Made by a program: the position numbers and the translations under genes. Below are positions 1,464 through 11,008 of a stretch of 43,224 nt of DNA, piece after piece (the stretch's first letter is position 1; each line of letters opens with the position of its first letter). Origin of the DNA: a virus; UHGV virus genome UHGV-0208947; one strand, given 5' to 3'. The notes below the pieces were generated by a model, which searched no databases, had not been told where the DNA came from, and saw only the letters and a list, made by a program, of their open reading frames with translations.

Positions 1464-2657
1464 ATGATCACCGACACAAAGCTCAGGAAGGCGCTCGGCA
1501 AGAAAAGAGATGATATCGAGATTATTTCTGATTCGCACGGGCTCAACGCCAGAATCAGCCAGGCCGGAAAAATATCATTTTTCTATCGGTATCGCTGGGC
1601 CGGTAAAGCGGTAAAACTCAATGTTGGTGATTATCCTGCAATGAGTATCACCCAGGCAAGAGAGCGTCGCCAACAATTCAGAAACTGGTTAACTGAGGGA
1701 CTGGATCCGCGAGAGCAGGTGAAGCTGGATAAGCAGACCCGACAGGAAGCGATGTCCGTTGCCGAAGCGTTCAATTACTGGATTGAAAGGCACTGTATCG
1801 CTAACGGGCTAGTTAAAGTCGATTACTATCGCTAGGTGTTTGAGAAACATATCGCCGAACCGATGAAGAATGTCAAAGTCGATAACACAGCGAAAATGCA
1901 CTGGATCAACGTCTTCGATTCTATAGAAAGCAGGGTGATGGCTCATTACATGCTTTCGCTGTGCAAACGGGCGTTTAGGTTCTGCGTTAACAGAAGTGTG
2001 ATCGCCTCAAACCCACTCGAGGGATTACTGCCATCTGATGTCGGGCAAAAGCCTAAAAAGAGAACTCGCAGGATGGACGATGACGATCTGCGCAAAATCT
2101 ATCAGTGGTTGAAAAGCCATATGTCGATAGAGTCCGTTTTCCTGGTGAAATTTATTATGCTTACCGGATGCCGTACGGCTGAGATTCGACTTAGTGAGAG
2201 ATCATGGTTTCGATTGGATGATAATGAGTGGGTCGTGCCTGCGGGCAGTTATAAAACTCGGGTACATATTAGAAGGGGACTCTCAGACGCCGCCGTTAAC
2301 CTGGTCAGAAATCACCTCAAGAAAATAAACACCAATCACCTGGTGACTTCACAACGTAAAATTGATGGCGGGATCAAAGATTCGCCCGTTCATTCACCTG
2401 TGGCATCCAATTACGCCCGTTCTATTTGGAATGGAACAGGTATGGCAGAGTGGTCGCTTCATGATATGAGGCGGACGATAGCCACAAATCTCTCTGAGTT
2501 AGGTTGCCCGCCGCACGTAATTGAAAAGCTGCTCGGGCATCAGATGGTGGGGGTTATGGCGCATTACAACCTTCATGACTATATCGATGATCAGAAACAC
2601 TGGCTCCGCGTTTGGCAGAGCCATCTTGAAGAGATCATCGGAGAGCCCTTCAGTTAA
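1464..2657 (+). pseudogene. int: P4-type tyrosine integrase interrupted by an in-frame TAG (amber) codon at 1833-1835
   Basis: N-terminal [14 protein letters not shown]...[31 protein letters not shown] resembles the arm-binding domain of P4-like integrases; C-terminal part (ORF 1836-2657) has HxxR and a terminal MAHYNLHDY tyrosine motif. Track ORFs 1407-1835 and 1836-2657 are in the same frame, separated only by TAG. Confidence 0.6.
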
Positions 2658-2896
2658 TTTATCTTCTTTTTATCCTCCCACTCTTTGATTGACTCAGAGC
2701 GCCAGCGGTTAGGGTTGCCGGGCCAGTCAGGGGGTGGGAACGGGCATACGAAGCCCCGAGGCATTGTGTCTGCACTTTGCCATGACCAAAGGGTTTTGCG
2801 TGAAATTTTGTAGCGACTGGTCAGGTCTGACGTTACCAAAATATCATCCATAGCTCTCTCCAGTTGCCCGTTCGGGCCATTCAAAATCTTTTTCAA
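2654..2896 (-). CDS. AlpA-family small DNA-binding protein (putative excisionase or regulator)
   Basis: 80-aa ORF adjacent to int; ...[15 protein letters not shown]... resembles AlpA/Xis-type HTH; start codon uncertain. Confidence 0.5.
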
Positions 2897-3135
2897 CCAA
2901 CCTGCCCGGGCAGGGAGCGGAGACGGCGCATGCCGGTCATCGCTGTGGCCACGTAGCTCGCCTTTCGGTTCACCACCTCCACCCAGACTTTCACGCCTTC
3001 AACCTTCACCGTATAAGTCTCTTTCATCTTGCTTCGCCCATAGTCGCCATATGTTTGCAAGTGAGCTGCCAGCGCGATGTCGCATGCTTGGCGAGCTAAA
3101 GGTGATTGCTTACTTCCTCGATTGATCAGTCGCAT
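2893..3135 (-). CDS. Hypothetical prophage protein
   Basis: 80-aa ORF co-oriented and overlapping the neighbouring gene by 4 nt; no recognisable motif. Confidence 0.4.
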   Translation of the reverse strand: MRLINRGSKQSPLARQACDIALAAHLQTYGDYGRSKMKETYTVKVEGVKVWVEVVNRKASYVATAMTGMRRLRSLPGQVG

Positions 3136-3173: not shown

Positions 3174-4292
3174 TCAGGCCACGTATTCCGGTTTCATATC
3201 CGCCAGGGTGATGCTGAATTGATCGTGCAGTTCATCGCCTAAGTGACGCTTTGAAGATGCAAGCATGCGCTCGGCTTCAGCGAACCGTTCGGCTGCATGC
3301 GGCTCGTCGGGCTGGGGCAGGGATTTAATAGCCTCCTCAACCTTGTTGCGTGCATCCACTAGGTAATAACGCTTTACGGCTTTGTTTTTCAGCTCGGTGA
3401 ATAGTGCGGATCCCAGCGTAGCTTTCGCCGTTTCAATGTCGGCACGCAGCGATTTGGCGCTATCCACGTCCTGAGCAGATTCGATGCGTTCGCGGAAATC
3501 ATCGGCAAGAGAGTCGACATTTACCGACGATTCCTGTGCGCTTTGCGTGGTTGTGACGGTGTCACCTGAGATATCAGCCAGGCTAACGCGTTGCGGCGTT
3601 GGGTTGATCTCTTTTTCTGTGCGCTGTTCAATCTCATCAGGGGTGTACACACCAAGAACAACTGCAGGGCAATACAGGCGCGCCCAGTATTTGAGTGCCA
3701 GATAAGCGATCTGCTGTTTCGGGTTTGATACCCAAAGTGGAGAATTACGTGTGATTACGCTGGAGAGGAAAACAGGCTCTCCCCAGGTGATATCACTTTC
3801 ACCGCGAATAACGGCACCTACCCGTACCGACAGTCCTTGTTCATCAGCACTTTCCCAACCGCGTACCATTTCTTTCTTGTCGTACGTCCCGCCACCTTTC
3901 GCAGGCTTTTTAACGGTTATCTCGCGGCTGCTGGCACATTTCGACCAGTCGCCCTCGTACTCATAGTGAAAGCGGCCAACGATGGCGTTTGAGCTGGAGA
4001 TCACCGCATTAACCAGTTGCGCTTCGTATCCCAGGACACCGTTAACCAGGTGCGTCTTTTGCGCCACGGCGTAAGGGTTCATACCCCACTGCATCGCCTG
4101 CATGATGATGGCCATGCAGTCTGCCGGATTGCCGCGGAGGTGCTCAGGCACCGTTACGGCTGCCTGTGCCATCAACCCGGCGACAGACTGAAGCTGGGTT
4201 AAAGCCTGCACGTTGAAAATGGCATTGCTGGCTGAGATCGTGTTTGGAGTCTGCTGTTCAGCGGTTACGATATTCGTGTTTTCCATCATCAT
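3174..4292 (-). CDS. RecT-family single-strand annealing protein (candidate)
   Basis: 372-aa ORF immediately downstream of the RecE-like exonuclease; region ...VPEHLRGNPADCMAIIMQAMQWGMNPY...GVLGYEAQLVNAV... follows the RecT-like pattern as I recall it. Confidence 0.55.
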   Translation of the reverse strand: MMMENTNIVTAEQQTPNTISASNAIFNVQALTQLQSVAGLMAQAAVTVPEHLRGNPADCMAIIMQAMQWGMNPYAVAQKTHLVNGVLGYEAQLVNAVISSSNAIVGRFHYEYEGDWSKCASSREITVKKPAKGGGTYDKKEMVRGWESADEQGLSVRVGAVIRGESDITWGEPVFLSSVITRNSPLWVSNPKQQIAYLALKYWARLYCPAVVLGVYTPDEIEQRTEKEINPTPQRVSLADISGDTVTTTQSAQESSVNVDSLADDFRERIESAQDVDSAKSLRADIETAKATLGSALFTELKNKAVKRYYLVDARNKVEEAIKSLPQPDEPHAAERFAEAERMLASSKRHLGDELHDQFSITLADMKPEYVA

Positions 4293-4297
4293 TCCCC

Positions 4298-7207
4298 TTA
4301 TGCATGAGTACGCAGCGCTTCAAGGCGGCGCAGGTCGAAGTCGTTCAGTTCGTCGGTGTAGTCAGCAGTGATTGGCGCTGGCCATTCACCTGTGTCGAAT
4401 CCGGTTGCGATATTGCGCATCGCTTTGCGGTACTCGAGCATACCCAGCTCCAGTAGTTCAGCGGATGCCTCGATGATGGCGATCCAGTGGTAGTTCTCGT
4501 CTTTGTTGACGAAAATCCAGAAGAACTGATCCAGCGCTGCGGTTTCGCAGTACATAGCCGCGCTCAGGTGATAATCACGTTCAATAATTTCCCGGTGTAG
4601 CCTGGCGCGCAGGCTTTCCTGCTTAACATTCCACATGCTGATGGTTTTCAGGTCAGCACCGATACGCACGCCGTCTAGGTCGATCTCAAGGTCAGGGCGC
4701 ACACGAACTTCCAGTCCCGTCTCCTCGTCAAAGCCAAAGTAGCTCACCTCAACGGCGCGGCTCGGGTGGGTTAGCAGCATGCCTGCGGTCGGGTGCGAGA
4801 GCAGTGCTGACTGAATTGCCTGCGCGGTGGCAAGTTGCTGGTGGGTAACCAGCACTTTCCCTTCCGGGTTGTTGCGCCAAGCATCGAGCAGCTCGTCGGC
4901 GAACACTGCATCTGGTTTGACTGCCTTCACGGCCTGAATCAGATCGGCCTTCGTGCCAGAGACTTTCAGCGGTTGCAGCTTCTGAGCTTCCTGCGCGACC
5001 AGGTCAGGATTGATAATCGCAAGTTGTTCGAGTAGTGCGTCGCGGCTGCCGCTGGTTTTAATCTGCGCTGGCAGGGTGGCGTTGTACTCTTTGATGCACG
5101 CCTTCATTGCTGTTGCTGTCTTCTTCTGATCTGCATCGATACGTTGGAATTCAGCTGGCAGCGCCATATAGTTCTGCGCCGTTTCATCCAGGCTAGCGCC
5201 CAGCGGCACCAGCGCTGGCAGGGTGGCGTTGTATTCATCCAGCAAAGCTTTGATATCGTCTGCGCTCAGTTGCGCTGGCAGGCTGGCGTTGTACTCATCA
5301 ATAAACGCGCGGATCGTTGCCGTGGTGGTAAATGCACCTTCCGGAATTACGGGTTCAACGCTAAATTCTTCATCAAGCTGTTCTGGCTGCAACGCCAGCG
5401 CATGTACCAGGTTTCCCATGTCCAGCACTGAGGAGCGCTCTTTGACGATGGTTTTCTCAACGTGGCGCGCATTGAAGTACATCAGCGAAACGCGCGCATC
5501 TTTTACCTGGGTGGAACTGATGCCGTTGGCAGCGTGGTAAACCTCGTTCGGCAGACCTTCATAGCGCCCAGGCTCGAAGTAATCGGGGTAAAAAACAGCT
5601 TGTTCGTCAGATTGCGCCTCTGGCTCGACGTGTGCCAAAACTGGTTCAGTCTGGTTTACAGAATCGCTATTTTGAGCGACAGATTCCGTATTTTGGTTTA
5701 CATCGGCCTGCTGGCCGGGATGTGACTCTTCACCAGTTTCCAGACTGCTTTCGCCTGACTGCATTTCATTACCAACATTTTTTTCATCACTGACAGTTTC
5801 TTGAACCTGCACATTGCTGGTGGTTTCCGTAGCCTGTTTCGTGCCATGAGTTGCTGAGTTCTGCAGTAAAGCCGTAACATCGAATATTCCGTTGCCGACA
5901 TTTTTAACCAGTTCTTGTTCGGCTTTATGTGGTTGTGCTGTCGCTTCCTCTGCGCGGCGGCGTGCTTCTTCTTCACGTACGCGTTGCAGGTTCTCTTCGT
6001 GAGTGCAGAAGGGTTTGCGTGGAGACTCCTTACTTTCAGGTTGGGGAATTTCCTGTGTTGCGGGCTCAGCTTCATGCAATGGCAATAACTCAACAGCAGC
6101 ATTAAACGCAGCAGTCATGGTCCGGTTAACAAACTCCAGGTGAGCGACAGGAGTTAGATGAATATTTTCCGGCGCGATACGTATCAGGTTAAAAATAGCT
6201 GTGCGGTTAACGCCAAGAACGCCGGGTTGATTGCGCAGAATGCTGCTCCATGATTTCCACGGTTCTTCTTTTTTGGTCACGATTTCTTTAGCGCGACGAA
6301 GAATGCTGCCCGGGATCTCGAAGTGGTTGAAGTCCATAGGCAGAAGGGCACATGCAATCTCTAAATCGAGAGTGTCAAGGGTATGGTATGTATCAGGTCC
6401 ACGGTCAGTGACGTAACCGCCGTTGGCATTGGTTCCGGAATCAGTACGCTGAACACTACTGATGTGATTACCGGCAGCCCATTCACGCGCCAGGATGCCA
6501 CGGTCAATGTAATCAGTAGCCGCCCACATTCTGGTGAAACGGAGTACCAGCGCGAGTTCGTGACGCTTGTCCTGGCTGAACACTTTGCGAATGGCATCGG
6601 TGTAGCGCCACAGGTCTTTGGTGTCGTAACCCTTCACTTCCGGGCAGTTCTCAGCAGCTAACAGCAAGTTCTGGACGTAACTGTTATCAGTGTCCATCTC
6701 CAGCGCGCCGATAGCTTCGTACTCTTCGCGGGTTACGTGGTGGCGCAGTTCGTCGGCGGTGAACTGGGAAAGCAGTTGCTTACGAAACGGCATCTGCACT
6801 ACCGGGTAGAGGGTTGAGTCGTCGTCGTGTTCGTCCAGCGTGATGCCAGCGGTTTCTGGCAGCGTTGACTCAGTAGTTATGTGACTATCAACGGTCTGAG
6901 CCGTTTTCTCGTCAGAGTTTTCAGCTGTGACTTTTGGCAGCCAGGTGCGGTCATCGTTCTGCAGTTCGTAGCGTTCGCACCAGGTGTAATCCACTGCGCC
7001 TTCTTCCGGCAGGTCGTCATATACCGGGAAATCGGTGCGGATTGGTTTGGCATAATCTTTACCGCGGCCAGTTTCTTCAATTCCGGCTTCTTCCAGTGCC
7101 ACATCGAGTTGGAGATTGGCGCGCGCTACACTTTTCGCAGTGAACCAAATCACTGCATCTTTCTTGCCAGACTTCTGACTGGCTTTTATCAGATGGAAAA
7201 ATTCCAT
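4298..7207 (-). CDS. RecE-like exonuclease VIII (recombination exonuclease)
   Basis: Long ORF; start taken at the ATG at 7207-7205 (MEFFHLIK...) preceded by AAGAGGA with 6-nt spacing; the track start at 7312 is GTG. Acidic C-terminal domain and position upstream of the RecT-like gene fit a RecE/RecT pair; contains internal EYNA(S/T)LPA repeats. Confidence 0.6.
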   Translation of the reverse strand: MEFFHLIKASQKSGKKDAVIWFTAKSVARANLQLDVALEEAGIEETGRGKDYAKPIRTDFPVYDDLPEEGAVDYTWCERYELQNDDRTWLPKVTAENSDEKTAQTVDSHITTESTLPETAGITLDEHDDDSTLYPVVQMPFRKQLLSQFTADELRHHVTREEYEAIGALEMDTDNSYVQNLLLAAENCPEVKGYDTKDLWRYTDAIRKVFSQDKRHELALVLRFTRMWAATDYIDRGILAREWAAGNHISSVQRTDSGTNANGGYVTDRGPDTYHTLDTLDLEIACALLPMDFNHFEIPGSILRRAKEIVTKKEEPWKSWSSILRNQPGVLGVNRTAIFNLIRIAPENIHLTPVAHLEFVNRTMTAAFNAAVELLPLHEAEPATQEIPQPESKESPRKPFCTHEENLQRVREEEARRRAEEATAQPHKAEQELVKNVGNGIFDVTALLQNSATHGTKQATETTSNVQVQETVSDEKNVGNEMQSGESSLETGEESHPGQQADVNQNTESVAQNSDSVNQTEPVLAHVEPEAQSDEQAVFYPDYFEPGRYEGLPNEVYHAANGISSTQVKDARVSLMYFNARHVEKTIVKERSSVLDMGNLVHALALQPEQLDEEFSVEPVIPEGAFTTTATIRAFIDEYNASLPAQLSADDIKALLDEYNATLPALVPLGASLDETAQNYMALPAEFQRIDADQKKTATAMKACIKEYNATLPAQIKTSGSRDALLEQLAIINPDLVAQEAQKLQPLKVSGTKADLIQAVKAVKPDAVFADELLDAWRNNPEGKVLVTHQQLATAQAIQSALLSHPTAGMLLTHPSRAVEVSYFGFDEETGLEVRVRPDLEIDLDGVRIGADLKTISMWNVKQESLRARLHREIIERDYHLSAAMYCETAALDQFFWIFVNKDENYHWIAIIEASAELLELGMLEYRKAMRNIATGFDTGEWPAPITADYTDELNDFDLRRLEALRTHA

Positions 7208-7345
7208 GTGAGATCCTCTTTTTTGAGTGTTAGAATCCCCGGGCCAGAGATAGCGCCCATTGGATGTTTTTTGGTTTGGTATAAATTCCGGTGTAACTTT
7301 GGTCGGTGGCACCGGACGTGAATCCCGCCTTGCGCGGGTTTTACG

Positions 7346-7507
7346 TTAGCCTTCGTGAGCCATCTGGTCGTGCGAAGCGCAACGTTTGGAGCAATACTCT
7401 TTTTCTTTGCGCGCCAGCTGTGAGCCGTTGCGATAGAGAAGGGTGCTCTTGATTACTTCCTCCGTTTTAACCGGCTTGCCGCAATATCCGCATTTCTTGT
7501 CTAACAT
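7346..7507 (-). CDS. Small zinc-ribbon protein (53 aa), hypothetical
   Basis: ATG at 7507-7505 preceded by GGAGGA; MLDKKCGYCGKPVKTEEV...YCSKRCASHDQMAHEG contains CxxC...CxxxC; below the 60-aa track cutoff. Confidence 0.45.
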   Translation of the reverse strand: MLDKKCGYCGKPVKTEEVIKSTLLYRNGSQLARKEKEYCSKRCASHDQMAHEG

Positions 7508-7518
7508 GACATCCTCCG

Positions 7519-7869
7519 CTAGTGGCTGAGTCCATGCCCCAGACCGTTCAGATAAACTTCAACCAGCAAATCCTTGGTGTAAGTCATTTCTACGCCGCGA
7601 TGCAGATACAAACGTCCGCGAGCGTTAGCTGATGCCGTCCAGGTTGAGTCTTTGTGTTTGACGAGCATCCCCGGCTGAACTGCGCCGCGGTTTACTGTCT
7701 GTGTACCGTAGTGCTGATGAACCATGATGTTCTCCAGTTTTTCTGAGTGAACTTCGCTGGTGGTGCCGCGGCGCTGATCTTCACGGTTGAGCGTTTTAAC
7801 TCTGCAATTCACCACCGCGAAGCTCACTCTGTGCTTTGCCCTTGTCGCCAGGCTGGCGGAACGTTTCAA
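7519..7869 (-). CDS. Hypothetical early protein in the position of an N-like gene (function not supportable)
   Basis: 116-aa ORF just downstream of the leftward operator; track start is TTG, true start unclear (internal M at MVHQHYG). Confidence 0.35.
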   Translation of the reverse strand: MKRSASLATRAKHRVSFAVVNCRVKTLNREDQRRGTTSEVHSEKLENIMVHQHYGTQTVNRGAVQPGMLVKHKDSTWTASANARGRLYLHRGVEMTYTKDLLVEVYLNGLGHGLSH

Positions 7870-7979
7870 ACCTACTGCGCGTTAATCTCACCACCTCATT
7901 CCGGTCTTCGTATGCCCCGGACGGCTACTTCGTGGGCTCCATGCCTGGGTGGTTCGTGGTGCGTCTTGGTGATTGCATA

Positions 7980-7996
7980 TTAAGCCTGAGACTTAA
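7980..7996. promoter_or_regulatory. Candidate left operator site (17-bp near-palindrome TTAAGCCTGAGACTTAA)
   Basis: Exact reverse complement of the 17-mer at 10194-10210 next to the repressor/cro divergent region. Confidence 0.5.
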
Positions 7997-8027
7997 ATCA
8001 TGTCAAGCTCCAGGCGAAATGTGATTG

Positions 8028-8043
8028 TAAGTTTCAGGCTTAA
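8028..8043. promoter_or_regulatory. Second candidate left operator half-copy (TAAGTTTCAGGCTTAA)
   Basis: 16/17 match to the operator motif, 32 bp from the first copy. Confidence 0.35.
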
Positions 8044-8146
8044 TCGTGATGTTCACCGAATTGCAGGCAAAAAAAATCCCGACGCTAAGGTCGAGATCGG
8101 GGACTTCGTGGCTGGGTGTTGGCGGCTGAGATGGTGGGTGAGGGTG

Positions 8147-8177
8147 TAAAAAACCCGACGCTGTGGCCGGGTTTTTT
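8147..8177. terminator. Candidate rho-independent terminator ending the repressor operon (leftward), possibly bidirectional
   Basis: A-run, GC hairpin CCCGAC/GGCCGGG, T-run; on the minus strand the stem CCCGGC/GTCGGG is followed by T7. Confidence 0.45.
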
Positions 8178-8301
8178 CATTACTGCTGGTTAAATCCTTT
8201 CGGCGAGTGCTGCTGTTCTTTATTACCAAATTTTTGATTTACAATGATTTTATAAGCGTTATTGAGAGCTTGCTTTATAGACATTAATATCTCCTTATGT
8301 G

Positions 8302-9606
8302 TTATTGACGATTAAAGTAGTTAGAGTTTAGCTCTTTAGGGAAGTAGTGTTTACGATTTACCCAAACAAATCCATCAACTTTTGATATCACAGCGACATC
8401 AACAGGCCCACCGACAGTTTCATAATCATGTGATACTTTTCTTTTGAATGCAGTGATGTTCACTAATGATTCGGCCATATACGCAAGATCTGCCTTCCCA
8501 AGTGATTGCAACATCGATATCATTTTATTTGTATGGTTATTAACAATATAGCTTTCAAGTTTAGTATCGTGATCTTGTAAAAGTACGTTTTTGAGTTCCT
8601 CAATTTCACTGGAGAAGTGATTGGCTAGTACTCCATTGTTCATTGCAGGGAAAATATTGCTAGAAACATAATGATTAAGCCGATCAAAAACTTCCTCTGT
8701 AAGAGTTCTGTTAAAATTAATGATGTTAGGGTTGCACCCATCAATGAAAGTTACTACTTCATCTTCTTGAGCAAATGGTATAACAAACCCCATATTGGTT
8801 ACCTTATTATGGGATTTATCATCAATATTATGGATCATCAATTTGTTTTTAAAAATGCCGTAGATATGAAGAGTGCAAATGGAAGGGTAATATTCTTCCT
8901 CTCCATAACCTGTTATAACAATCCCTGAATATGTACGACTAGCATGGACTTTGAAAATTAAACAAGTGGAATATAATATGACTTTTTCCATAAGCTCTTG
9001 CTGTATATTTTCACAGTTATCAAGAACAATAATTGATGAAATGTATGGCGATATTAAATCTTGTATATATGCTAAAGCATCATTAAACTCTTCTGTATCA
9101 AACCCTTCGAAAAAGAGATTATTCCTTAAGATTCCTATCTCTAAATCAAAGGCTTGCTTAACTATGTTTTGAAAAATAACATTGTCGAGTTCAACGGCGG
9201 GGTTCATTGTTAAATAGTTTACTACATTATTATCATTAATGTATCTCATCAAACCTTTGAGGTTATCAACAACAAGGTTTATAACGCAAGCCTCTCTCAT
9301 TTCATTTGTTATAAGGTCTGAGTTACCATTGATGAATTTTACAAAGTCATTAACATATTCTTTAATGGTAGGGAAACTAGTTTTCCCCAATTGTTTTCTA
9401 TAGGATTTAATTATAAGTTCCCACGGTGCGCCACCCAGTGTCGCATTATTATAAATCATGATCCCCACGGGATGGTGTTTAGATAGTTCGAATAGTTTTT
9501 CCGCACTATTATTTATTTTTACTAATCTATTATGCTCTGTGGTGACTGCAGAGTCAGCAGCAAGGGCGATTCCAGTATTATTTATTACAACAATCTCAGC
9601 TGTCAT
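8302..9606 (-). CDS. AT-rich accessory protein with HslV/proteasome-beta-like (Ntn hydrolase, threonine peptidase) signatures; candidate defence or abortive-infection gene in the rex position
   Basis: Minus-strand ORF co-oriented with and directly downstream of the repressor gene. The internal ATG at 9606-9604 gives MTAEIVVINNTGIALAADSAVTTEHNRLVKIN..., closely paralleling HslV [35 protein letters not shown] (Thr after Met, Asp about 17, Lys about 30). The C-terminus ...YETVGGPVDVAVISKVDGFVWV resembles the GSGG / D-x-x-S-G-G region of the same fold. About 300 residues of Asn/Ile/Lys-rich sequence lie between. The track ORF extends to an ATG at 9705 (467 aa); 434 aa from 9606. Confidence 0.6.
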   Translation of the reverse strand: MTAEIVVINNTGIALAADSAVTTEHNRLVKINNSAEKLFELSKHHPVGIMIYNNATLGGAPWELIIKSYRKQLGKTSFPTIKEYVNDFVKFINGNSDLITNEMREACVINLVVDNLKGLMRYINDNNVVNYLTMNPAVELDNVIFQNIVKQAFDLEIGILRNNLFFEGFDTEEFNDALAYIQDLISPYISSIIVLDNCENIQQELMEKVILYSTCLIFKVHASRTYSGIVITGYGEEEYYPSICTLHIYGIFKNKLMIHNIDDKSHNKVTNMGFVIPFAQEDEVVTFIDGCNPNIINFNRTLTEEVFDRLNHYVSSNIFPAMNNGVLANHFSSEIEELKNVLLQDHDTKLESYIVNNHTNKMISMLQSLGKADLAYMAESLVNITAFKRKVSHDYETVGGPVDVAVISKVDGFVWVNRKHYFPKELNSNYFNRQ

Positions 9607-9747
9607 TGCAAAACATCCCGTGTAGTAGTGATAAATATTAATTAAATTGATAGTTTTTTTCAATCTAACATAAATGGCGGAATCACCCCCCAGTAAAGAC
9701 ATCATTGTCTCATGGGAACTAAAAATTCAGGACAAACCTAAAGCGAT

Positions 9748-10134
9748 TCAGTCCCCCTGCGAGCGAATCCGCCCCTTCATGTACTTCTCATACAGCTCAT
9801 CCAGTTCCTTAAGACGTATCGAAAAGATGCGGAGCATGTTCTGTTGCTCTTCTTCTGGCAGCTGGCGGTAGAGCTCAAGCAGGCGCTGTTCGTCCGGCTT
9901 AAGTCCGTCCTTCTCGCCGACATCCTCACCGAGTAACCAAGGCACAGACACGCCAGCTGCGTCAGCGACAGCGAGAGCTGATTTCTTGCTGATCACGCCT
10001 TTTTTAAACCAGCCGTTCACAGACTGCGGGGTTACCCCAGCAACCCTGGCCATATCGGATTTGGTCATACCGCGCCCGTTCAGCTCTGAAAGGCGTTCGA
10101 CAAGTATCGGATTAAGTACGGTTTTCTCTTTCAT
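9748..10134 (-). CDS. Prophage repressor, DicA/CI-like HTH (XRE family) protein
   Basis: 128 aa; HTH MTKSDMARVAGVTPQSVNGWFKKG; C-terminal LLELYRQLPEEEQQNML resembles DicA; divergent from the cro-like gene with operator repeats between. Confidence 0.8.
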   Translation of the reverse strand: MKEKTVLNPILVERLSELNGRGMTKSDMARVAGVTPQSVNGWFKKGVISKKSALAVADAAGVSVPWLLGEDVGEKDGLKPDEQRLLELYRQLPEEEQQNMLRIFSIRLKELDELYEKYMKGRIRSQGD

Positions 10135-10193
10135 GGTTAGAAGAATAAGCCTTTTTCTTAAACTTGAAAATTCGCCTCAGGCTTGACAATAAA

Positions 10194-10210
10194 TTAAGTC
10201 TCAGGCTTAA
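10194..10210. promoter_or_regulatory. Candidate right operator (TTAAGTCTCAGGCTTAA) in the repressor/cro divergent promoter region, with -35-like TTGACA at 10183-10188
   Basis: 17-bp near-palindrome identical (as reverse complement) to 7980-7996; related half-sites CTCAGGCTT at 10176-10184 and AAGCCT at 10147-10152. Confidence 0.5.
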
Positions 10211-10238
10211 TTTGATTGTATTCAAATCGGAGACAACG

Positions 10239-10457
10239 ATGAACGGGTTAACGAAAGCCATTAAGTCCGCTGGCACTGCAACAAATCTCGCAACCATGCT
10301 GGGCATCAAGCCGATGTCGGTCAGCCGCTGGAAAAACCGGTACCAGGGCGTGGTGCCTGCTGATCGGGTCCTTCAAATCTACGCGGCTACCGGCGTAACT
10401 CCACACGAGCTGCGCCCTGATCTCTATCCAAACCCAAGTGACGGTTTACCAAAGTAA
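10239..10457 (+). CDS. Cro/YdaS-like small HTH regulator
   Basis: ATG at 10239 after GGAGA; MNGLTKAIKSAGTATNLATMLGIKPMSVSRWKNR... HTH; divergent from the repressor. Confidence 0.7.
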   Translation: MNGLTKAIKSAGTATNLATMLGIKPMSVSRWKNRYQGVVPADRVLQIYAATGVTPHELRPDLYPNPSDGLPK

Positions 10458-10468
10458 GGAATGTAACT

Positions 10469-11008
10469 ATGCAATCACTTACGTATCAACAGAGTAACGG
10501 GTTCATTTCAGCAGCGCTGATAAATCGCGCTCAACCAAAACCGGGCGTCAGTTGTGGTGCCCTCCGTGATGCTGTTCGCGCCTGGTCAGCAGTAGCCGGG
10601 CAGGACGTTGTAACGGCCCTGATCGTTGAAGAGTGGCACCGGATAGGTGGCGAAGGTATCGACTTTCCGGCAGATCACAGCCGTGCCCGGCAGAAGCTGT
10701 TCCGCTTCCTGGATAACCATTTCAACAGCGAACGGTACCGCGAGAACGTCCGCCAGCTGACGCCGGCAATCCTCGCTGTCCTGCCGATTGAATACCGCAA
10801 TCGTCTGCTACCAGAAGACAACGTAATGGCTCGTCTGGCAAGGCTGGAGAAGGAAACCAGCGAAGCGAAGATTGCTGTCGCAATGGATGCGCCACGTCAT
10901 CAGAAGCTGAAAGAGTTGAGCGAGGGGATCGTGGAGATGTATCGCGTTGACCCTGGGTTAACCGGTCCGTTGATGGAAATGGTGCAGATTATGCTGGGGG
11001 CTATATGA
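10469..11008 (+). CDS. CII/YdaT-like early regulatory protein (family uncertain)
   Basis: 179-aa ORF immediately after the cro-like gene, before the replication genes. Confidence 0.45.
   Translation: MQSLTYQQSNGFISAALINRAQPKPGVSCGALRDAVRAWSAVAGQDVVTALIVEEWHRIGGEGIDFPADHSRARQKLFRFLDNHFNSERYRENVRQLTPAILAVLPIEYRNRLLPEDNVMARLARLEKETSEAKIAVAMDAPRHQKLKELSEGIVEMYRVDPGLTGPLMEMVQIMLGAI

Follow-up and report, generated by a model that had tools for sequence, protein, structure and literature searches.

In the 43,224-nucleotide virus genome UHGV-0208947 ("the window", meaning this whole stretch), which is a Rac-like lambdoid prophage of Escherichia coli, we found a gene at 8302-9606 (-) for a homologue of proteasome beta subunits, followed closely by a small co-oriented gene at 8180-8284 (-). 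We are highly confident that the large protein belongs to the proteasome family and carries its catalytic residues. The pair was read as a mobile module of a hydrolase and its partner, carried as prophage cargo and acting in exclusion, abortive infection or addiction. We hold this overall functional statement tentatively, at slightly less than an even chance. Its basis is the observed fold, the catalytic residues, the conservation of both genes, the boundaries of the cassette, and the repeated occurrence in accessory slots of phages and satellites.

Start codon and conservation of the large protein

A first-pass annotation made from the sequence letters had described an open reading frame (ORF) at 8302-9705 (-) with an internal ATG at 9606 giving MTAEIVVINNTGIALAADSAVTT..., and both were reproduced exactly as quoted. 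The ORF encodes 467 amino acids (aa) from the ATG at 9705. PHROG family 5990 (phrog_5990), however, covered only residues 34-467 of this form (E=3.7e-178), and the homologues all opened with M-T-A-E, matching the internal ATG. Because phrog_5990 and all homologues begin at that residue, the true start is almost certainly ATG 9606, giving a product of 434 aa plus stop that begins MTAEIVV, and the RefSeq model WP_231531568.1 (467 aa, ATG 9705) is probably over-extended. Such a mis-set start would hide the N-terminal threonine from automated analysis. The stretch 9607-9705 (-), the putative N-terminal extension of the longer form, contains a promoter-like site at 9663-9635.

The family was large, with more than 6,148 matches in a 90%-clustered database, every one labelled 'hypothetical', and at 50% identity there were 6,075 clusters. 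Of these, 150 were listed, and almost all of the listed ones aligned from their own residue 1, indicating that M-T is the true N-terminus family-wide. In an alignment of 147 sequences with about 35% mean column identity, the invariant residues were T2, N9, A16, D18, S19, K37, P46, G228, G233, G235, D403, V404 and G412. Given the invariance of Thr2, Asp18, Ser19 and Lys37 among these relatives, the proteasome-like signature is, as judged from the alignment, far beyond chance.

Fold and active site of the large protein

Direct searches with the window protein gave no useful match in Pfam, NCBIfam, PADLOC or PDB sequences. The fold was nevertheless clear in the AlphaFold2 model, built with 52 homologues (predicted local distance difference test, pLDDT, 87.3; predicted template modelling score, pTM, 0.82). 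The model showed the alpha-beta-beta-alpha sandwich of N-terminal nucleophile (Ntn) hydrolases with proteasome topology. When it was compared with the PDB by Foldseek, the best 50 matches were all 20S beta subunits or Anbu, and comparison with a viral fold library gave two significant matches, a phage 'proteasome beta type-2' protein and a Gordonia phage protein. The first-pass annotation had proposed this structural check for an Ntn sandwich, and the sandwich was found.

Its proposed profile search had a divided outcome. There was no match to the Pfam proteasome family PF00227, and when the family profile was compared with the PDB, archaeal beta subunits ranked first at a non-significant level (E ~0.9), through a match that depends on tVGGPiDVAviSKgdGfi against beta ASGGMIDVAVITRKDGYV. 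Full-length hhalign against proteasome beta recovered the C-terminal motif alone (prob 75%). When the insertions described below were cut out using the AlphaFold2 model, hhalign against a 20-sequence archaeal beta profile gave prob 94.7% and E=5.6e-8 over 192 columns, covering beta residues 1-194. The excision was guided by the model, which may bias this comparison, yet the register of Thr2 with Thr1 came out unforced. In this register, numbered on a Thermoplasma acidophilum beta reference identical to 1pma_B, Thr2 corresponds to Thr1, Asp18 to Glu/Asp17, Thr22 to Thr21, Lys37 to Lys33 and Gly399 to Gly170.

Thr2 (codon 9601-9603 (-)) directly follows the initiator Met, in the position of a first-residue nucleophile. 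It is invariant in the 147 relatives and pairs with beta Thr1, bearing out the earlier suggestion of a proteasome- or HslV-like threonine after the Met. The suggested acidic residue was also correct, being Asp18 (codon 9553-9555 (-)). The suggested 'Lys near 30' was not, since Lys30 pairs with beta Lys29, and the catalytic lysine, the equivalent of Lys33, is Lys37 (codon 9496-9498 (-)). With these residues the proteasome triad of Thr1, Asp/Glu17 and Lys33 is represented in full.

The protein was divided into three core segments and two insertions. The N-terminal catalytic core (residues 1-98; 9313-9606 (-)) comprises S1-S4 and H1-H2 and holds Thr2, Asp18, Thr22 and Lys37, with helices 62-73 and 81-94 filling the H1/H2 position; its mean top-residue frequency was 0.64, with 26 of 98 columns at 90% or more. 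Helical insertion 1 (residues 99-218; 8953-9312 (-)) lies at the H2 'pore-loop' position and is formed by helices within 101-218. It is acidic (18 D/E vs 6 K/R) and hypervariable, with a mean top-residue frequency of 0.26 and none of its 120 columns conserved. The middle core (residues 219-292; 8731-8952 (-)) contains S5-S8 and H3 (281-289), the invariant G228, G233 and G235, and a conserved PFAQ motif. Helical insertion 2 (residues 293-370; 8497-8730 (-)), at the H3/H4 position, consists of paired long helices (293-322 and 325-368) and is again hypervariable (0.29). The C-terminal core (residues 371-434; 8305-8496 (-)) holds H4 (371-392), S9, S10 and the ETVGGPVDVAVISKVDGFVW motif.

Overall, mean top-residue frequencies were 0.50-0.79 in the core segments and 0.26-0.29 in the insertions. 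The best-conserved region (0.79) was the C-terminal core, in which ETVGGPVDVAVISKVDGFVW pairs with beta residues 168-188, ASGGMIDVAVITRKDGYV; the resemblance of the C-terminus to proteasome beta had been recognized in the first reading. About 300 residues between the two ends had been called unrecognisable in that reading. They proved instead to be the two helical insertions on either side of the recognisable core strands of 219-292. No transmembrane segment was found in the large protein.

Comparison with known proteasome homologues

The window protein differs from 20S beta subunits and Anbu (MEROPS T1, PF00227) in having about 200 extra helical residues in its two insertions, and the locus differs from theirs in being mobile-element cargo with no alpha subunit, AAA+ ATPase or Anbu operon. 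HslV (ClpQ) is also a bacterial proteasome homologue that starts with Met-Thr and has no long propeptide. However, HslV is a compact subunit of about 175 aa that forms double hexameric rings with HslU as partner, features in which the window protein does not resemble it.

An ordinary self-compartmentalising housekeeping protease of the HslV or 20S kind, acting on unfolded proteins, would have the same proteasome fold and triad. We consider this reading scarcely credible. The hypervariable insertions are large and occupy the ring and inter-ring contact sites of 20S, so that a closed degradation chamber is unlikely. There is no AAA+ partner nearby, the gene is sporadic (22/5,426 E. coli genomes), and its AT-rich composition is foreign.

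In a study that was in silico only, 22 new homologues of the proteasome were described by Fuchs, Alva and Lupas (2021; Bioinformatics 37:4694, PMC8665760). Their largest group of proteasome homologues with multiple insertions, PMI-4 ('Proteasome homolog with Multiple Insertions 4'), has no propeptide, a Thr1/Asp17/Lys33 triad, and two insertions, a long one behind H1/H2 and another between H3 and H4. It occurs in Proteobacteria, Firmicutes, Actinobacteria, Bacteroidetes, the Planctomycetes-Verrucomicrobia-Chlamydiae (PVC) group, Cyanobacteria, Euryarchaeota and phages (PMC8665760). The authors argued that proteins with insertions of this kind should be unable to assemble into rings or double rings, and they reported no genomic context or co-occurrence pointing to function (PMC8665760). 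The lack of a nearby AAA+ partner at the window locus is likewise in line with that study (PMC8665760).

The window protein is like PMI-4 in its insertion after H1/H2 (residues ~99-218, between H2 and S5), in its insertion between H3 and H4 (293-370), and, by comparison with Table 1 of PMC8665760, in belonging to a large family broadly spread over bacterial phyla, Euryarchaeota and phages. It is most likely a PMI-4 member, as judged from the described architecture and distribution; none of ten consensus-like family members that we checked was the PMI-4 representative HDY66466.1. The protein family, fitting PMI-4, is therefore already known and functionally uncharacterised. Unlike PMI-4 as described, the window family has a small partner gene conserved on its downstream side, and it recurs in accessory slots of phages and satellites. 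The partner gene, the boundaries of the cassette and the recurrent placement in accessory slots appear to be new observations.

A conserved small gene follows the protease gene

The small gene at 8180-8284 (-) encodes 34 aa plus stop, MSIKQALNNAYKIIVNQKFGNKEQQHSPKGFNQQ. It is preceded by an AAGGAG Shine-Dalgarno sequence, its ATG lies 17 nt past the protease stop codon, and it has no RefSeq annotation. Among 85 genomic and phage loci, 82 had an ORF in the same orientation, 29-149 aa long and mostly 34-82 aa, that began between -29 and +60 nt from the protease stop. In most loci the distance was -29 to +30 nt, and many of the ORFs overlapped the stop codon. A comparable ORF was also present at 66% of random positions in the control. 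The presence of an ORF was therefore too permissive a measure and was replaced by tests of homology and position with hidden Markov models (HMMs).

Of 21,660 six-frame segments taken from 87 loci, 41 matched an HMM of the commonest partner class (class A, ~60 aa) at E<0.1. All 41 were in the immediate-downstream slot, although this slot made up 0.95% of the segments. The survey was then extended with 80 IMG/VR loci and five class HMMs. Among 36,653 segments, there were 111 matches at E<1e-3, with 107 in the slot (0.92% of segments). The remaining four were also downstream and co-oriented, three being misplaced by an unreliable in-frame stop position and one lying after a truncated protease gene. 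A recognised partner class was present in 107 of 158 loci.

The window partner belongs to class D (MSLQQVVDNAYKALAAAKFP...), a class conserved beside proteases that have no more than 41-46% identity to the window protease. The class-D HMM gave 14 matches, 13 in the downstream slot and one further downstream of a truncated protease gene. The first 20 codons of the window and Klebsiella partners showed seven synonymous and five non-synonymous codon differences. The small partners matched no Pfam or PHROG family, and the relatives that a database search found were 41 unnamed proteins, 45-69 aa long, with no fusion among them. In an archaeal metagenome-assembled genome (MAG), the partner is an annotated gene, separated by 1 nt from that of the protease. 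Otherwise the gene is mostly missed by annotation pipelines, and it looks obligate.

Clustering of the flanking ORFs found no conserved neighbour besides the small gene. No family was common to more than two loci among the 130 nearest large neighbours, and a conserved small gene upstream was not found. As judged from the sequences, our claim about the partner is one of conserved position, size and orientation together with homology within classes. It is limited to this, and shared ancestry of the five classes is not claimed, because comparisons between classes were marginal.

In Klebsiella prophages, an annotated 128-aa ORF (7292-7678 (-) in loci L013-L016) runs antisense and overlaps the partner ORF (7331-7438 (+)) as well as the protease gene at its 3' end. 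It matched nothing in Pfam or PADLOC, and it is either an overlapping antisense gene or an artefact of gene calling in AT-rich DNA, in which case it hides the small gene.

Class A (34 proteins, 29% mean column identity) had Pro28 as its sole invariant residue after Met1, within the motif [FY][FLY]P. AlphaFold2 predicted a three-helix protein (pLDDT 83) with the invariant proline at a helix-helix kink. This proline may be structural or may mark a site of recognition or cleavage. Connectase (the MJ0548 family) is a proteasome homologue with insertions that forms no chamber and acts on one specific partner sequence (PMC7980362), and it is thus a precedent for a non-degradative, partner-specific Ntn enzyme. 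If the window protein were a similar sequence-specific transpeptidase or processing enzyme with the partner as its own substrate, the Thr2 amine or hydroxyl would attack a defined bond of the partner, which would be matured or be ligated to a target, so that the pair would serve for tagging or for peptide maturation. We regard this as quite unlikely. The invariant proline of the model is at the kink and not in an exposed extended segment, the window partner has KFG instead of KFP, and classes C and F have no such motif. The enzymes also differ in structure: connectase lacks H1/H2 and has a two-helix S3/S4 insertion over the active site, whereas the window protein keeps H1/H2 and has no S3/S4 insertion of this kind.

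The two genes form an exchanged cassette beside the repressor gene

The GC content of the region ~8200-9700 was 0.28-0.43, the lowest of the whole 43-kb window, compared with 0.48-0.60 in the flanks, in agreement with the AT-richness described in the first reading. Homology to sister Rac-like prophages stopped at 7972-8177 on the left (8177 in L022) and resumed at 9752/9766 on the right. These breakpoints define an exchanged cargo cassette of ~1.57 kb at 8178-9751, which consists of a spacer with a promoter-like site, the protease gene and the partner gene. The Klebsiella copy had 69.5% DNA identity, with homology confined to 8228-9606.

The cassette is closed by a hairpin resembling an intrinsic terminator at 8148-8177 (-), aaaaaaCCCGGCcacagcGTCGGGtttttt, which we read from the sequence; a second terminator-like site, at 8098-8075, was the sole one reported by a terminator scan. 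Between the repressor stop and ATG 9606 there is a promoter-like site at 9635-9663 (-) (TTGAAA-17-TAATAT, 9/12 consensus matches). Another and strong one, at 7977-8006 (-) (TTGACA-18-TAATAT, 10/12), lies past the cassette terminators and upstream of kil, and is plausibly the leftward early promoter. This assignment would place the cassette as rexAB is placed relative to pL in lambda.

The protease gene lies 141 nt downstream of a repressor-like gene of the helix-turn-helix (HTH) type at 9748-10134 (-) and in the same orientation, as previously noted. In lambda (rexAB) and in Rac and P22 (sieB), non-essential exclusion genes fill the space that separates the repressor gene from the early leftward promoter or terminator. 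The window cassette occupies the equivalent slot, is co-oriented with the repressor gene, and varies between related prophages. The sister Rac-like prophages carry unrelated two-gene cargo between the same flanks, that is, between Kil and the repressor. The slot is of the rexAB type, as the first reading had placed it. RexAB itself differs from the window pair and shares no sequence or fold kinship with it, being a sensor and a membrane ion channel, whereas the pair is a soluble hydrolase and a small helical protein.

The cargo of the sister prophages (2282-3064 (-) in L021 and 2171-3117 (-) in L022) encodes a protein of 84 or 101 aa and a coiled-coil protein of 173 or 211 aa. No informative match to it was found in Pfam or PADLOC, and these cargoes are further candidates for lysogen-expressed functions.

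The position beside the repressor gene also raised the idea of an ImmA-like induction protease that would cleave the adjacent repressor and cause the lytic switch. The repressor-like protein (128 aa; HTH_3 E=1e-6, Phage_CI_repr, phrog_8, phrog_4) has no Peptidase_S24 domain, and the E. coli repressor accompanies the cassette in 13 of 13 genomes. However, the repressor upstream of the 70%-identical Klebsiella copy is an S24-type CI, which is able to cleave itself, and other copies are distant from every repressor or belong to the chromosomes of unrelated bacteria and of archaea. The conserved companion is the small downstream gene and not the repressor. In E. coli ET881 (NZ_CP100890.1), the cassette is 99.8% identical to that of the window, whereas the adjacent repressor is 81.7% identical over 84% of its length. 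This mismatch indicates recombination between the cargo and the immunity gene. We rejected the idea, which now appears very improbable, because of the self-cleaving CI neighbour, the copies distant from repressors and the mismatch in ET881.

To the left of the cassette, the prophage encodes integrase, RecT, a 1004-aa RecE, YdaE and Kil. On the other side, the repressor-like gene diverges from a YdaS/Cro-like gene, which is followed by YdaT and the replication O/P genes. The RecE-family exonuclease ORF (4298-7312 (-)) is unusually long, counting 1004 aa from a GTG start where RefSeq has 969 aa. It has a low-complexity acidic middle, and its N- and C-terminal parts match different PHROG exonuclease families. 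An Rfam scan of 7400-10500 found no RNA family.

Distribution and genomic contexts

The window copy was present in 13 of 5,426 complete E. coli genomes and a distant paralogue in nine, making 22 in all, every one chromosomal. Both of the two E. coli copies that we inspected lie in prophages. Elsewhere, the gene was carried by 244 viral contigs and by 10 of 72,556 plasmid records. In Klebsiella lambdoid prophages, a 70%-identical copy was directly downstream of an unrelated S24-type CI. In the Q-holin region, copies were antisense to the late operon in Enterobacter and enterotoxigenic E. coli (ETEC) prophages and in sense orientation in a Providencia phage. Klebsiella prophages and a Stenotrophomonas phage also carried copies where the lysis and tail genes meet, a Serratia island of the integrase-AlpA-primase type carried one behind its primase gene, and others were in Streptococcus satellites and a Porphyromonas phage. 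The module was widespread in bacterial chromosomes of diverse phyla and in archaea, with a flat 30-38% identity to the E. coli protein.

The paralogue in ETEC strain 120899 and eight other genomes (L183, 8989-10272 (-)) is a 427-aa protein encoded antisense in a lambdoid prophage. Its gene lies between that of the Q antiterminator and the genes for a DNA methyltransferase, tRNA-Thr, tRNA-Gly and holin. The Q-holin region is where stx is carried in Stx phages.

In a Methanophagales MAG (L184, 3474-7197), the protease gene (3704-4999) and the partner gene (5001-5177) are followed by an N6_N4 methyltransferase and a restriction enzyme of the RE_MjaI family. A 70-aa protein encoded upstream of the module looks, by eye, like a HicB-type antitoxin. 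This locus is one context that does look like a defence island.

Besides the viral contigs, database entries filed as phage genomes carry the gene (Stenotrophomonas, Providencia, Porphyromonas), and its orientation in the Providencia phage is that of Q and the lysis genes. It might, then, benefit the phage during infection, for example by encoding a protease that destroys defence or regulatory proteins of the host, in counter-defence or host takeover, and not be expressed in the lysogen for protection. The chance of this seems small to us. The gene is antisense to the late operon in the Enterobacter, ETEC and Klebsiella prophages, it is on the lysogenic strand after the repressor gene in E. 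coli and Klebsiella, and it also occurs in satellites, and in chromosomes of archaea and bacteria where a scan of the nearest neighbours showed no phage genes.

The pair further resembles a toxin-antitoxin module in being two adjacent genes, one small and one large, that are mobile and patchy in occurrence. A module for addiction only, made of the hydrolase and a small labile partner, would stabilise its carrier element or a chromosomal region and have no part in phage defence. Such a module would be consistent with an autonomous two-gene unit whose genes overlap or are closely spaced, and with patchy spread by horizontal transfer over bacteria and archaea and insertion among unrelated housekeeping genes. 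Addiction modules are, however, common on plasmids, where this gene is rare (10/72,556), and the repeated placement is in prophage and satellite accessory slots typical of lysogen-expressed exclusion genes. This reading and a defensive one overlap, since many modules of the toxin-antitoxin kind have a defence function as well. Addiction alone we consider unlikely.

Proposed mechanism and points against it

From the observations above we infer enzymatic activity, a role of the partner, expression in the lysogen and any defence phenotype. Methionine aminopeptidase removes Met1 ahead of a small second residue. In the proposed mechanism, this enzyme would strip Met1 from the large protein to expose Thr2 as the nucleophile, and Asp18 and Lys37 would complete a proteasome-type triad. 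The hydrolase would be a free, substrate-selective enzyme and not a closed chamber, with specificity or regulation provided by the insertions. The partner, a tiny, fast-evolving, helical protein, may bind the hydrolase and restrain or direct it in toxin-antitoxin fashion. The pair would be expressed in the lysogen from the repressor transcript, from its own promoter-like site at 9663-9635, or from both. A superinfecting phage or loss of the element would then free the hydrolase to cleave specific host or phage proteins, and the outcome would be exclusion, abortive infection or addiction to the element. Lit, a prophage zinc metalloprotease, cleaves EF-Tu in abortive infection. The likeness to Lit is in the proposed principle only, a latent prophage protease unleashed on infection; Lit is of another catalytic class and has no homology to the window protein.

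Several results weigh against this mechanism. The position of beta Ser169 is occupied by Val398, which is nearly invariant (at least 90% of the alignment). The position of Gly47 is an alignment gap, with a Gly at 53 in most members and an Asn in the window protein. With this change of Ser169 to Val, and with no assigned equivalents of Ser129, Asp166 and Gly47, the active site may follow another mechanism, or may not act on peptide bonds at all. The antitoxin gene precedes the toxin gene in most modules of the toxin-antitoxin kind, whereas the small gene is second here. Profile comparison between partner classes was marginal (A-B and C-D; best hhalign E ~0.002). At 80 chromosomal loci, the nearest neighbours were mostly housekeeping or miscellaneous genes, and the defence-type genes among 130 neighbours were two methyltransferases, two AAA_21 and two Zeta toxins. 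With such ordinary neighbours, enrichment in defence islands was not demonstrated. The models of PADLOC-DB v2 gave no match to the window protein at E<=1, and our literature search found no paper linking proteasome homologues to anti-phage defence.

The last two results also agree with the first-pass annotation, which knew of no described defence system built on a proteasome-like Ntn hydrolase; none was found in the literature search or in PADLOC-DB v2. Its overall interpretation was partly supported: it was upheld for the structure, in fold and triad, and the defence role is put forward here as a hypothesis. In its strongest form, the cassette would be the first anti-phage immune module built on a proteasome-family N-terminal-threonine hydrolase. 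This free enzyme, acting outside any compartment, would be restrained by a tiny helical partner that evolves along with it and be released by infection to cut one particular protein of host or phage, in a two-gene design shared by phages, satellites, bacteria and archaea. We regard this strongest form as doubtful.

Implications for the proteasome family

Proteasome homologues beyond 20S, HslV and Anbu are numerous and have no known function, and the locus described here gives two leads, the partner gene and the lysogen slots. The 1.57-kb cassette makes an orphan family of thousands tractable in E. coli. If its partner is what the enzyme processes or ligates, it would be a second tool enzyme of the connectase type. 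Should the cassette exclude phages, threonine Ntn hydrolases would be a new catalytic class in bacterial immunity, and one more piece of eukaryotic-type protein machinery would have immune relatives among prokaryotes. An immune role, if true, would also be the first function for the large orphan PMI-4 family.

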